Origin: Candidatus Latescibacterota bacterium
GTDB taxonomy: Bacteria > Latescibacterota > UBA2968
NCBI GenBank assembly: GCA_965208125.1
Contig: OZ242320.1
Span: 5,184,001-5,248,000 of the forward strand
Reading direction: 5' to 3'
DNA length: 64,000 nucleotides
Made by a program: the position numbers and the translations under genes. This document shows, one piece after another, positions 18,012 to 21,873 of this stretch (positions within the stretch are counted from its first letter, which is position 1; each line of letters begins with the position of its first letter). The notes under the pieces are model-generated. The model was not told where the DNA came from, made no database searches, and saw only the letters and a program-made list of their open reading frames with translations.

Positions 18012-18087
18012 TGGCAGGCCAGGCAGGACTTGAACCCGCAACCGTCGGTTTTGGAGACCGATGCTCTACCAGTTGAGCTACTGACCT
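18012..18087 (-). tRNA. tRNA-Trp (CCA)
   Basis: Cloverleaf, anticodon loop CTCCAAA, GGTTCAAGTCC T-arm, encoded CCA end. Confidence 0.96.
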
Positions 18088-18098
18088 ACCCAAAACAA

Positions 18099-18174
<76 letters not shown>

Positions 18175-18199
18175 GTTGGGCAATCCCCACTTGAGGTTC

Positions 18200-18276
18200 T
18201 GGAGCGGGAAACGGGACTCGAACCCGCGACCCTCAGCTTGGAAGGCTGACGCTCTGGCCAACTGAGCTATTCCCGC
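18200..18276 (-). tRNA. tRNA-Gly (TCC)
   Basis: GCGGGAATAGCTCAG start, anticodon loop CTTCCAA, GGTTCGAGTCCC T-arm, CCA end. Confidence 0.96.
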
Positions 18277-19732: not shown

Positions 19733-20479
19733 TCAATTCCAATACTCACTTCGTGCAGGCGGTCCAGACTTTAATGCCCTGCGGATCAACAGACCCAAAA
19801 CCCGGGTAAAAACCACTAATAAAAAAAAATTAAACATCGAAGCCAGCACCAACCCCACCCACGCCAACGGTTCCAATATCAAACTGCCGAGCAGAGATAT
19901 CCCAAACAGACCAAAACATGCTTGAACGTAGTCGAATCGAATAATCTGGCGCAAATCCCGCCAAACAGGCCCCGGCTCAAATGCCATCCACACGCGTCCC
20001 TCAGTGGCAAAACGCGTAAATACAATGGGAAAAAAACCGTAAAAAAAGATGACCATAAGTGTAAACAATAGCAACATAGGCCCGGCTTCTTCTACAGAAC
20101 CCGGTATCAAACCCAATACCGAAATCACCATTGCAAAACTCGCAAATCCAATGACACTATATCCCAGGACAATGAGGAATAACCAAAATCCCGCTACCCC
20201 GTAAGCCCACCAATTGCTCCATGATGGCAAGTGCAACGATTCAGTACCGTTGAGTGCATCGACAAAAATCCGGTATAAGTACCCCCAGGTAATGAACAAT
20301 AATCCAAAGATTACAACCAGCAATACCCCCCCCATCCAGAGCTTTATTTGCCCGGTGAGAATCAGAATCAGCACCAGCACGGACAGCAAATTTAATGCGC
20401 CGCCAGGGACAATTTTTTGCCACCAGCGCGGCGTCTTAAACAGGGAGCGAAGTGTATTAAACAAAATAATGCCAAACAT
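19733..20479 (-). CDS. DUF4013-like integral membrane protein
   Basis: Multiple TM helices; GYLYRI...LPSWSNW...G pattern typical of DUF4013. Confidence 0.6.
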   Translation of the reverse strand: MFGIILFNTLRSLFKTPRWWQKIVPGGALNLLSVLVLILILTGQIKLWMGGVLLVVIFGLLFITWGYLYRIFVDALNGTESLHLPSWSNWWAYGVAGFWLFLIVLGYSVIGFASFAMVISVLGLIPGSVEEAGPMLLLFTLMVIFFYGFFPIVFTRFATEGRVWMAFEPGPVWRDLRQIIRFDYVQACFGLFGISLLGSLILEPLAWVGLVLASMFNFFLLVVFTRVLGLLIRRALKSGPPARSEYWN

Positions 20480-20493
20480 AGCTTCCTAACATA

Positions 20494-21687
20494 TCAGACT
20501 GCGTCAAGTGCCCGTCCAACATCGACAATAATATCCTCAGCGTCTTCAATGCCCACAGCATAGCGCACCAACTCATCGGCAATGCCAATTGCCAATCGGT
20601 CTTCTCGTGCCAATTCGTAATACGAAATAGATGCGGGATGCGAAACGAGACTCTCCACACCTCCCAGACTGGCCCCTATACACGGAATTCGCAAGCGATC
20701 AATAAAATCCAGCGTCCCTGCCTCATCCGCATCTAAATCAAAACTCACCAGCCCGCCAAACCCACGCATCTGCGCTTTGGCAACATTGTGGTGTGGATGG
20801 CTTTCCAAACCGGGATAATACACGCGCTTTACCCGATCGTGCTTTTCCAAAAACCGCGCCAACATCAGCGCTGTTTCATTTTGCTTACTCATTCGCAGTG
20901 GGAAAGTCTTGATCCCCCGGATCAGCAAATAAGCGCAATGCGGGTCAATCACTCCCCCCAAAATACCTCGATAGTCCCGAATCGCACCAACAAGGGGCGC
21001 ATTGCCCAGCACAGCTCCAGCCATCAAATCGTTGTGTCCGCCCAAATACTTGGTCGCTGAATGAATGACCAGATCGATGCCAAATTCGAGCGGGCGCTGG
21101 TTTAAGGGCGTTGCAAATGTGCTATCAATAATCGTCTTGACCCGATGCCTTTTTCCAATGTCAACCAGTTTTTCCAGATCGATCACATTGAGATGTGGAT
21201 TGGTCGGAGATTCGGAAATAATTACCCGCGTGTTATCCCTGACTGCACCTTCTAATTCGGCGTAATCACCCGCGTGAACAAATGTGGTTTCAATACCAAA
21301 TTTTTTTAACACCATCTGACAAAATTGCGCGGTCTTGCGATAGCAATCATCCATAATCACCGCGTGGTGCCCGGTTGAGAGCATGCCCAGCAGCGTGGTT
21401 GTTACAGCACTCATACCCGACGAAAATAAAATAGCGGCCTCTGCGCCTTCCAATTCTGCGAGCTTGGATTCTGCGGCATGCTGTGTTGGATTGCCGTAGC
21501 GTCCGTAGTCAATCTGTGGGTTTTTGCCCGCTACAAACGCCTTAACCGCATGCGTATCTTCAAATACATAAGTCGATGTCTGGGCAATGGGCACTGTCAG
21601 AGATTTTCCCCAGTGTCCCCTTTCTTCACCTGCATGTACAGCCCGTGTTCCCGAACAGGGTCCGTGCGTTTCGCACTTTTCAGACAT
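20494..21687 (-). CDS. metB: Cystathionine gamma-synthase, plant-type (Cys/Met metabolism PLP enzyme)
   Basis: YGRYGNPT, DCYRKT, ESPTNP, HSATKYLGGHND (PLP lysine); SAM riboswitch upstream. Confidence 0.85.
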   Translation of the reverse strand: MSEKCETHGPCSGTRAVHAGEERGHWGKSLTVPIAQTSTYVFEDTHAVKAFVAGKNPQIDYGRYGNPTQHAAESKLAELEGAEAAILFSSGMSAVTTTLLGMLSTGHHAVIMDDCYRKTAQFCQMVLKKFGIETTFVHAGDYAELEGAVRDNTRVIISESPTNPHLNVIDLEKLVDIGKRHRVKTIIDSTFATPLNQRPLEFGIDLVIHSATKYLGGHNDLMAGAVLGNAPLVGAIRDYRGILGGVIDPHCAYLLIRGIKTFPLRMSKQNETALMLARFLEKHDRVKRVYYPGLESHPHHNVAKAQMRGFGGLVSFDLDADEAGTLDFIDRLRIPCIGASLGGVESLVSHPASISYYELAREDRLAIGIADELVRYAVGIEDAEDIIVDVGRALDAV

Positions 21688-21700
21688 GCGCTATCTCCAC

Positions 21701-21728
21701 AAAAAAAGCGGAGCTAAAAAAGCCCCGC
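21701..21728 (-). terminator. Leader terminator 2 upstream of metB
   Basis: GCGGGGCT-T5-AGCTCCGC followed by T7. Confidence 0.75.
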
Positions 21729-21737
21729 GCAGTACGC

Positions 21738-21766
21738 AAAAAAACCGGACTAAAAAGCCCGGTTTT
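21738..21766 (-). terminator. Leader terminator 1 upstream of metB
   Basis: AAAACCGGGCT-TTTT-AGTCCGG followed by T7. Confidence 0.75.
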
Positions 21767-21774
21767 GGGAATAA

Positions 21775-21825
21775 CTTTTTAGCGACTTGTTTAAAGTGGC
21801 TGCAATATGCCGCAAATCACCACTT
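21775..21825 (-). ncRNA. SAM-II (SAM_alpha) riboswitch aptamer
   Basis: Minus strand reads AAGTGGTGATTTG-CGGCATA-TTGCAGCCACTTTAAACAAGTCGCTAAAAAG, matching the SAM-II consensus GUGGUGAUUUG...UUGCAGCCAC.UUAAACAA.UCGCUAAA; lies directly 5' of a methionine biosynthesis gene. Confidence 0.88.
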
Positions 21826-21844
21826 GCTATAACTGTATTTTGGG

Positions 21845-21873
21845 AATGTAACCAAAACCCTCAACCCTGTCAA
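21845..21873 (-). promoter_or_regulatory. sigma70 promoter of the riboswitch-metB transcript
   Basis: TTGACA-17 nt-TACATT immediately after the thrC stop codon. Confidence 0.75.

Follow-up and report, generated by a model that had tools for sequence, protein, structure and literature searches.

The DNA analysed here (the window) is a stretch of 64,000 nucleotides (nt) of contig OZ242320.1 from a Candidatus Latescibacterota bacterium, and the element of interest is a predicted S-adenosylmethionine (SAM) riboswitch of the SAM-II class that stands, together with two successive intrinsic terminators, in the leader of a methionine-pathway gene. The element is on the minus strand, and all positions are coordinates of this 64-kb window. 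In the direction of transcription, a threonine synthase (thrC-like) gene at 21874-23238 (TIGR00260, 223.3 bits; cut-off, 167.1) is followed by a -35 box (TTGACA, 21868-21873) and, 17 nt later, a -10 box (TACATT, 21845-21850). Next come the aptamer (21758-21833), terminator 1 (T1; hairpin at 21745-21762, U7 tract at 21738-21744), terminator 2 (T2; hairpin at 21708-21728, U7 tract at 21701-21707) and a Shine-Dalgarno (SD) sequence (GGAG, 21695-21698). The ATG of the regulated gene (20494-21687) is found at 21687-21685, 7 nt beyond the SD sequence and 71 nt after the aptamer match. An initial annotation of this DNA had proposed just such an order of promoter, SAM-II-like aptamer, two hairpin-T7 terminators and ribosome-binding site, and all of these are indeed present on the minus strand.

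The product of the regulated gene is a 397-amino-acid (aa) pyridoxal-phosphate (PLP) enzyme of Cys/Met metabolism (PF01053, 439.8 bits), and its sequence places it in the cystathionine gamma-synthase family. The initial annotation had called the gene metB. The family implied by that name stands; the best NCBIfam equivalog matches all fall below their cut-offs, and we therefore make no choice between MetB, MetZ and other members of the family.

The promoter-like site at 21873-21845 scores 10 of 12 and is the sole such site that a motif scan reports in 21000-22500 (shuffles, 1.4 +/- 1.2); by itself, it is not above chance. We call it a promoter because the motif is kept in relatives. Of 68 related leaders, 62 have the pattern TTGAC[AT]-N16-18-TANNNT no more than 60 nt ahead of the aptamer, usually at 17-22 nt from the first aptamer helix (P1); Corbino et al. 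(2005, PMC1273637) described the same near-consensus arrangement upstream of SAM-II. The thrC-like gene ends in a stop codon (21874-21876) that abuts the -35 box with no terminator in between; thus, transcripts reading through from thrC would also reach the riboswitch and both terminators. The sequence upstream of the leader differs in about half of the congeners.

The identity of the aptamer was established with the Rfam covariance model RF00521 (SAM_alpha), which matches 21833-21758 over its full length (model positions 1-79) with 45.4 bits (gathering score, 36; E, 5.1e-7). The 3' end of the match extends into T1. A whole-genome search with this model finds, at the same score, a single copy in the 5.75-Mb genome. 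The models for SAM-I (RF00162), SAM-V (RF01826) and SAM-I/IV (RF01725) match nothing in the genome, a result that is weak for the latter two, whose control genomes were also matched nowhere. P1 pairs 21824-21819 with 21800-21795 and encloses the loop L1 (GAUUUG, 21818-21813). The second helix, P2, forms an H-type pseudoknot between a 5' strand within 21811-21801 and a 3' strand, CGCUAAAAAGUU, at 21773-21784 (alignment columns 45-56); this 3' strand, which we consider the switching strand, belongs to the segment ending in GUCGCUAAAAAGUU at 21786-21773, within the aptamer.

P2 was placed from the crystal-structure description in PMC3303485, and pairs were counted on an alignment of 43 related aptamers. 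In P1 and P2 together, 94.3% of the cells pair, compared with 22-58% after displacement of the 3' partners by one to three columns; four pairs have changes on both sides, and none of 500 shuffles reaches the observed covariation score. The six pairs of P1 are formed in 99.2% of the cells (41 distinct sequences), the outer pair being AU 33, CG 4, GU 2 and GC 1 times. The nine pairs of P2 are formed in 91.1%, with three of them changed on both sides. The core pairs of P2 are invariant and are therefore uninformative on covariation, either way. Likewise, the pocket nucleotides GAUUUG, UAUUGC and GCUAAAAA are invariant or nearly so, which fits the family and adds no covariation. The UUU of L1, UAUUGC and GCUAAA match the nucleotides that surround SAM in the description of PMC3303485 (U10-U12, U18-G22 and U44-A48), and by the same comparison the 3' strand of P2, which is the strand that the initial annotation had singled out, carries a SAM-contacting U. 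The minimum-energy fold of the full-length leader (z, -2.74) pairs the aptamer non-natively and was not counted as evidence. From these data, the element is a genuine SAM-II aptamer, predicted to bind SAM.

Both terminators are well-formed hairpins. T1, CCGGGCUUUUUAGUCCGG (also written CCGGGCTTTTTAGTCCGG), has seven pairs, five of them G-C, and a loop of four; T2, GCGGGGCUUUUUUAGCUCCGC (also written GCGGGGCTTTTTTAGCTCCGC), has eight pairs, six of them G-C. RNAfold gives the hairpins -10.4 and -13.4 kcal/mol, respectively. T2 was listed by the first motif scan; T1 was absent from that list and was found by a genome-wide scan for terminator hairpins. The spacer from the P2 strand to T1 is 10 nt, and 16 nt separate the stem of T1 from that of T2. 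Between them is a small hairpin, GCGU-ACU-GCGC (21727-21737), which overlaps the first two bases of T2 and varies within the genus in its loop only. An AAAA at 21766-21763 and the U tract of T1 are able to extend the T1 stem once transcription has passed. Thus arranged, two rho-independent terminators follow one aptamer, as in a dual-terminator platform. No second aptamer stands before T2, as it would in a tandem riboswitch: the gap is 16 nt, and the RF00521 match is the only one in the genome.

Each hairpin contains a complement of the switching strand. In T1, the aptamer's GCUAAAAAGUU finds its complement in GGCUUUUUAGU (21759-21749), and in T2, GCUAAAAAG finds its complement in CUUUUUUAGC. 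The leader thus has both a terminator and an antiterminator that excludes it and is built with an aptamer strand, the 11-base-pair (bp) helix of strand and T1 crossing the T1 hairpin. As a background, we used 433 terminator-like hairpins of the genome, or the 431 left after removal of T1 and T2 for ranks. The motif CTTTTT[AG]G is found in two of the 433, and T1 is one of the two. RNAduplex energies against the 16-nt aptamer strand AAGUCGCUAAAAAGUU have a mean of -5.7 kcal/mol (standard deviation, 2.0) in the 431 background hairpins; T1 reaches -10.5 kcal/mol, which four of them equal or better. The complement in T1 is clearly beyond chance in this genome. That in T2 is not, in this genome alone, and the support for control of T2 comes from relatives. 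Thus the claim in the initial annotation that both hairpins carry the complement is literally correct, and in the window it exceeds chance for the first hairpin and not for the second.

To describe the relatives, we designate genera gN, families fN, leaders LNNN and genomes GNNN. RF00521 is found in 57 of 61 relatives. In a sample of the phylum it occurs in 60 of 151 Latescibacterota genomes, concentrated in families f1 (29/29), f2 (18/19) and f4 (2/2); f3 has it in 10 of 64 genomes, and it was not found in the 36 sampled genomes of families f5-f14. An exact-pattern scan of species genomes yielded 98 stretches, and among the 80 listed were 16 from Latescibacterota with the same leader type, 33 of the Gemmatimonadales type (a few labelled “uncultured bacterium”) and 31 from Alphaproteobacteria.

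The tandem layout was counted with one set of criteria for all leaders. Within the genus, 20 of 21 genomes have two units of hairpin and U tract after one aptamer. Outside it, such pairs were counted in g9 (2/2), g11 (1/2), g17 (1/1), g6 (1/5) and g8 (1/4, a case from the automated criteria alone). Inspection by eye adds three g6 leaders of the same gene, which have both units with a T1 too weak to pass the threshold (-7.6 or -2.7 kcal/mol), two more leaders in g17, and leaders in g19 and g20. The tandem layout thus recurs in at least five further genera. By the same criteria, no tandem terminators were found in the 32 leaders of the other nine genera, in the 31 alphaproteobacterial leaders or in the 33 Gemmatimonadales and other leaders.

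The complement of the strand is likewise retained inside the terminators of most related leaders. Of 68 leaders, 56 (from 12 of 15 genera) have the motif C-U4-6-[AG]-G in the 130 nt downstream, as compared with 501 of 20000 random genome windows (2.5%). The basal stems of the terminators vary between genera and the apical complement element is kept; an apical loop better conserved than its stem is what one would predict of a functional complement to an invariant strand. As for T2, the duplex of a typical congener has -10.5 kcal/mol (equalled by 4/431), with AGUCGC:GUGGCU pairing in addition to AAAAG:CUUUU, and those of G010 and G001 reach -14.1 and -13.1 kcal/mol (0/431 each). In g6, the T2 duplex is at -16.5 kcal/mol (0/431) and uses a different register, with UUAGCGGC pairing to GUCGCUAA. 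Duplexes of the T2 type elsewhere have -14.9 and -15.0 kcal/mol in g9, -11.7 in g11 (1/431) and -15.7, -12.5 and -10.4 in g17; g19 is an exception (-10.7 kcal/mol, 23/431). These relatives are not independent samples, and the conservation counts therefore overstate the support. A complement of the strand, of the UUGGCGAC type pairing to GUCGCUAA, can be recognised by eye in the single terminators of the alphaproteobacterial and Gemmatimonadales leaders too. Therefore, the antiterminator logic belongs to the SAM-II family at large. The placement differs: here the complement occupies the 5' stem and loop (CUUUUUAG), whereas in those leaders it occupies the loop and 3' stem.

This view of the family agrees with the literature. 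Terminators between P2 and the open reading frame (ORF) were noted in many SAM-II representatives at the discovery of the family as the metA motif (Corbino et al. 2005, PMC1273637). According to Barrick and Breaker (2007), SAM-II occurs in alpha- and gamma-Proteobacteria and Bacteroidetes and is most often associated with regulatory terminators, the commonest mechanism in alpha- and beta-Proteobacteria. For the SAM-II leader of Sinorhizobium meliloti metZ, termination is a prediction (Scheuer et al. 2022, PMC9373788). The statement in the initial annotation that SAM-II often acts on translation is thus at odds with these sources, in which terminators are the most frequent platform. Because the literature ties SAM-II mostly to terminators, not to translation, we regard the terminator/antiterminator logic as the standard platform of the class. 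What the initial annotation called an unusual expression platform is accordingly unusual in the doubling of the terminator and ordinary in its logic.

The window element resembles the metZ type in its P1, its H-type pseudoknot with a GCUAAA strand and its OFF logic, and also in its near-consensus promoter, its methionine-pathway gene and an intrinsic terminator between P2 and the ORF. It differs from known SAM-II riboswitches in having two terminators rather than one and in its host phylum. The Latescibacterota host and the doubled terminator behind one aptamer are the less ordinary features here. That SAM-II is little discussed in this lineage, as had been asserted, is borne out in the literature searched: it held no publication that pairs SAM-II with a Latescibacter or a Gemmatimonad, and, judged by their titles, none of the three publications that mention both Latescibacter and riboswitches is about SAM-II there.

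For the dual terminator, the closest precedent is Bc1, a cyclic di-GMP (c-di-GMP-I) riboswitch of the Bacillus cereus group, whose two terminators in one platform are described as “rarely seen” (Liu et al. 2024, PMC11218506). It was the only natural case found in literature on dual, tandem, second or consecutive riboswitch terminators, in a search that covered journals other than subscription ones. As far as that account goes, Bc1 also places two nearby rho-independent terminators behind one aptamer (28 bp apart, compared with 16 nt from stem to stem here), has the weaker hairpin first and the stronger second, and conserves this layout within its group. It is unlike our element in ligand, aptamer class and phylum, and Bc1 is bench-tested, the window element being a computational prediction. 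Further, the ligand of Bc1 unfolds the first terminator while the intact second one masks the response; here both terminators complement the sensor strand and an OFF response is expected. The review of tandem riboswitches by Sherlock et al. (2022, PMC9481103) sorts these by aptamers per platform, and in the passages of its Table 1 that were consulted there is no class of one aptamer with several platforms. The tandem SAM riboswitches described there (SAM-II/SAM-II and SAM-II/SAM-V) resemble our element in that one SAM leader has two successive control points. Theirs have one aptamer per platform, whereas here there is no second aptamer in the 16 nt between T1 and T2.

How, then, might this leader work? 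The aptamer class, P1, the H-type pseudoknot, the promoter, both hairpin-U7 terminators, the conservation of the layout and the energetics are computed, and on them we base a model. That the leader is a SAM-II OFF switch acting by termination, with T1 under the control of the strand, is in our judgment very likely. For T2 being controlled by the same strand, the case is about evenly poised. The mechanism that we favor, and that sequence and modelled folding make reasonably probable, is an OFF switch of a kinetic kind: the free strand would block T1 and would then be handed to T2, and SAM would cause premature termination of the PLP-enzyme gene. With SAM, the P2 3' strand CGCUAAAAAGUU would be locked in the pseudoknot, T1 would fold and stop most polymerases, and T2 would catch those that leak past T1. 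Without SAM, the free strand would pair with the emerging 5' half and loop of T1, and the resulting 11-bp antiterminator would serve as a kinetic trap; the 5' half and loop of T2, on emerging, would then take over the strand and let T1 fold harmlessly behind the polymerase. T2 would thereby be blocked as well, and the gene would be transcribed. In its full form this would be a platform of one sensor and two checkpoints, in which the P2 3' strand blocks T1 and is exchanged to the loop of T2 as T1 folds behind the polymerase; we put this forward tentatively, and at somewhat less than even strength. With the same reserve, we suggest that the arrangement yields a tighter OFF state without a second aptamer, and that this design has been kept or re-made across several Latescibacterota genera.

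Folding of the growing transcript is consistent with such a sequence of events. In the lowest-energy structure of the 97-nt transcript, P1 is intact and the strand pairs with the 5' half and loop of T1; T1 wins at 103 nt; at 133 nt the strand is on the loop of T2 with T1 folded inside; and T2 wins at 139 nt. The direct-path barrier from the antiterminator to T1 is 13.5 kcal/mol (findpath, an upper bound), and it is high because the strand-T1 helix and T1 cross, such that one must open almost fully first. Before the 3' half of T2 has been made, the strand on T2 with T1 folded has -24.9 to -28.0 kcal/mol, as compared with -8.5 to -11.9 for the strand on T1, and this was the case in all four leaders of the genus that were tested. 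The ligand response, the efficiency of termination, and the hand-over and its speed are what the model would predict from these energies and the sequence.

A number of observations weigh against this mechanism. At equilibrium, T1 and T2 each form with a probability of 0.98-0.99 whether the strand is free or blocked, in the window and similarly in four other tandem leaders, and the T1 core (-10.9 kcal/mol) is more stable than the antiterminator on T1 (11 bp, -8.5). Since equilibrium folding is alike in both states, any control must be kinetic. Thus, the proposal of the initial annotation that the free strand is an antiterminator finds agreement in the growing-transcript series, where the strand pairs with T1 and then T2, and none at equilibrium, where both terminators win regardless. 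Everything rests on folding kinetics. Kinetic control is common to many riboswitches. Only four nucleotides of T1 are still to emerge when the antiterminator is complete, and the barriers to the hand-over, 7.6-9.7 kcal/mol by findpath (upper bounds), are not negligible. In the window itself, the T2 duplex with the strand is unremarkable at -8.9 kcal/mol, 35 of 431 background hairpins being as good (top 8%), and that of G016 is similar at -9.1 (31/431). The congener G018 has lost T2. Finally, the second hairpin of g20 is without the complement (-5.6 kcal/mol, 309/431), and in g17 it is the first hairpin that is not complementary (-7.3 kcal/mol, 137/431, L007).

Several of these points would be accounted for if only T1 were sensed and T2 were a constitutive back-up or attenuating terminator that lowers expression in both states, an alternative that we consider unlikely, though it is the likeliest of the rival readings. 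T2 could also serve to end read-through from thrC, from which no terminator separates the leader, and its likeness to the strand could date from a duplication of T1 or simply reflect a U-rich loop. T1 and T2 do have GGGCUUUUU(U)AG...U7G in common, as duplication would give. The register of the g6 complement, on the other hand, is not expected of a plain copy of T1 and argues for selection on the complement. The formation of T2 at equilibrium in both states, the number of background hairpins that match its complement in the window (35/431) and the g20 hairpin (309/431) all accord with a T2 that is blind to SAM; in most tandem lineages, however, the T2 complement ranks at 0-5 of 431, and the strand on T2 is the best structure in the tested leaders of the genus before the T2 3' half is made. 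In Bc1, the second terminator stays folded on ligand binding and masks the response (PMC11218506), a precedent that speaks for such blindness and against the hand-over. Still, a T2 of -13.4 kcal/mol with a U7 tract that ignored SAM would silence the gene in both states.

Two further readings seem to us much less probable. Amino-acid attenuators work by a 1:2 / 2:3 / 3:4 pairing scheme, and a relay on this model would have the strand hold the 5' half of T1 in the absence of SAM, so that the freed 3' half and U tract of T1 block the 5' half of T2. We think this improbable for the leader at hand. It is plausible in g9 and g11, where the 3' half of T1 and the 5' half of T2 are both CCCGGG-like, and where the cross-hairpin of L152 has -10.6 kcal/mol; similar ones have -9.0 in L011 and -7.2 in L025. 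It is weak in the window: although the hairpin scan lists UUUUGCGU-ACU-GCGCGGGG (21741-21723), which involves the 5' half of T2, the cross-pairing consists of three G-C and five G-U pairs and is never the best structure in the growing-transcript series. Further, stems that are G+C-rich and near-palindromic cross-pair by default, and no compensatory change supports the relay, the variation of the small hairpin within the genus being confined to its loop. In the other reading, the leader serves mainly to produce short riboswitch RNAs that end at T1 or T2 and act in trans, and control in cis is secondary. This is compatible with the other readings and, as the principal role of the leader, very improbable. 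Stable small RNAs (sRNAs) derived from SAM-II leaders, RZ and RA, are known from S. meliloti, and a trans action has been proposed for them (Scheuer et al. 2022, PMC9373788); the strong conserved promoter upstream would suit such a role. Nothing that we computed indicates a target or a function in trans, and the close association of the leader with one methionine-pathway gene, conserved from genus to genus, favors control in cis. We thus retain the kinetic OFF switch described above as our preferred reading.

Some other candidate features of the leader were considered and rejected. A degenerate second aptamer between the terminators was rejected for the gap of only 16 nt, and translational control by the pseudoknot for the distance of the SD sequence, 75 nt after the P2 strand. 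Masking of the SD sequence by the 3' half of T2 is possible as a pairing in the window (CUCCGC with GUGGAG). This idea was dropped because, by eye, the pairing is reduced to CUCC/GGAG over an 11-nt loop in most congeners and has no counterpart in g9.

Several other SAM-II leaders of the phylum have architectures of their own. L169 (G117:C16:20758-21232) contains the top-scoring SAM-II of the phylum sample (55.5 bits), with two hairpin-U6 units, the second of which lacks a complement to the aptamer strand; the first 119 aa of the downstream gene have no NCBIfam match. In L170 (G103:C175:4677-5318), two SAM-II aptamers are 165 nt apart, with a terminator after the first, and the second runs directly into an SD-like GGGAG and an ATG; such a doublet is of the “bi-mechanism” kind of Sherlock et al. 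(2022, PMC9481103). L174, L175 and L176 (G135:C159, G117:C216 and G117:C193) have sub-threshold SAM-II-like aptamers of about 35 bits, in which the P2 3' strand continues as AAAAGGAG and is followed by the ATG of a small ORF; L174 has two copies 340 nt apart, and G117 has near-identical copies on two contigs. SAM-II also precedes an L-threonine 3-dehydrogenase gene in L006:1414-2802 (plus strand; NF003808, 398.7 bits; cut-off, 380), and by eye the same MKAIRK... gene start occurs in L010, L129, L130, L153, L157, L161, L163 and L164. A SAM switch would not usually be expected before such a gene, and most of these leaders have a single terminator only about 8 nt after the aptamer.

The thrC-leader-enzyme region (20494-23238) is matched at 90-95% identity by contigs from coral and sponge metagenome RNA libraries; relatives of the genus therefore occur in coral and sponge samples. 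With a likeness threshold of 88%, four runs gave such contigs, and some of them bridge the leader and the ORF (X1, 21335-21839; X4, 20494-21874; X3, 21617-21823); run X2 has no contig over 21700-21811. Such contigs carry neither 3' ends nor strand and possibly include DNA, and they are silent on termination and expression.

Downstream of the PLP-enzyme gene, a gene for a DUF4013 protein (19733-20479, minus strand) starts after 14 nt; it is probably co-transcribed, and so would also be under the riboswitch. A cluster of three tRNA genes is found at 18015-18276 (minus strand, 67.8-72.2 bits). On the other side of thrC is a 154-aa ORF (23549-24013, minus strand) whose product contains a DUF2442 domain and weakly resembles the DhiA antitoxin (25 bits; cut-off, 200).

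What appears from the sequences to be new here is that the terminator is doubled, that this doubling is conserved and recurs within Latescibacterota, and that both copies carry the complement. A modest gain for annotation is the label of SAM-repressed, as a prediction, for the gene at 20494-21687. If the two-checkpoint reading is true, a natural and conserved case of one aptamer with two terminators would add a class to riboswitches that are usually sorted by aptamers per platform, and would be of interest for studies of co-transcriptional folding and for the design of RNA switches. For the organism, it would represent a cheap means of tightening repression, in which two read-through probabilities are multiplied and the sensor is not duplicated. 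For the family, these leaders, nearly all of them from two families, widen the range of SAM-II to a clade within an uncultured phylum and include a complete set of platform variants.

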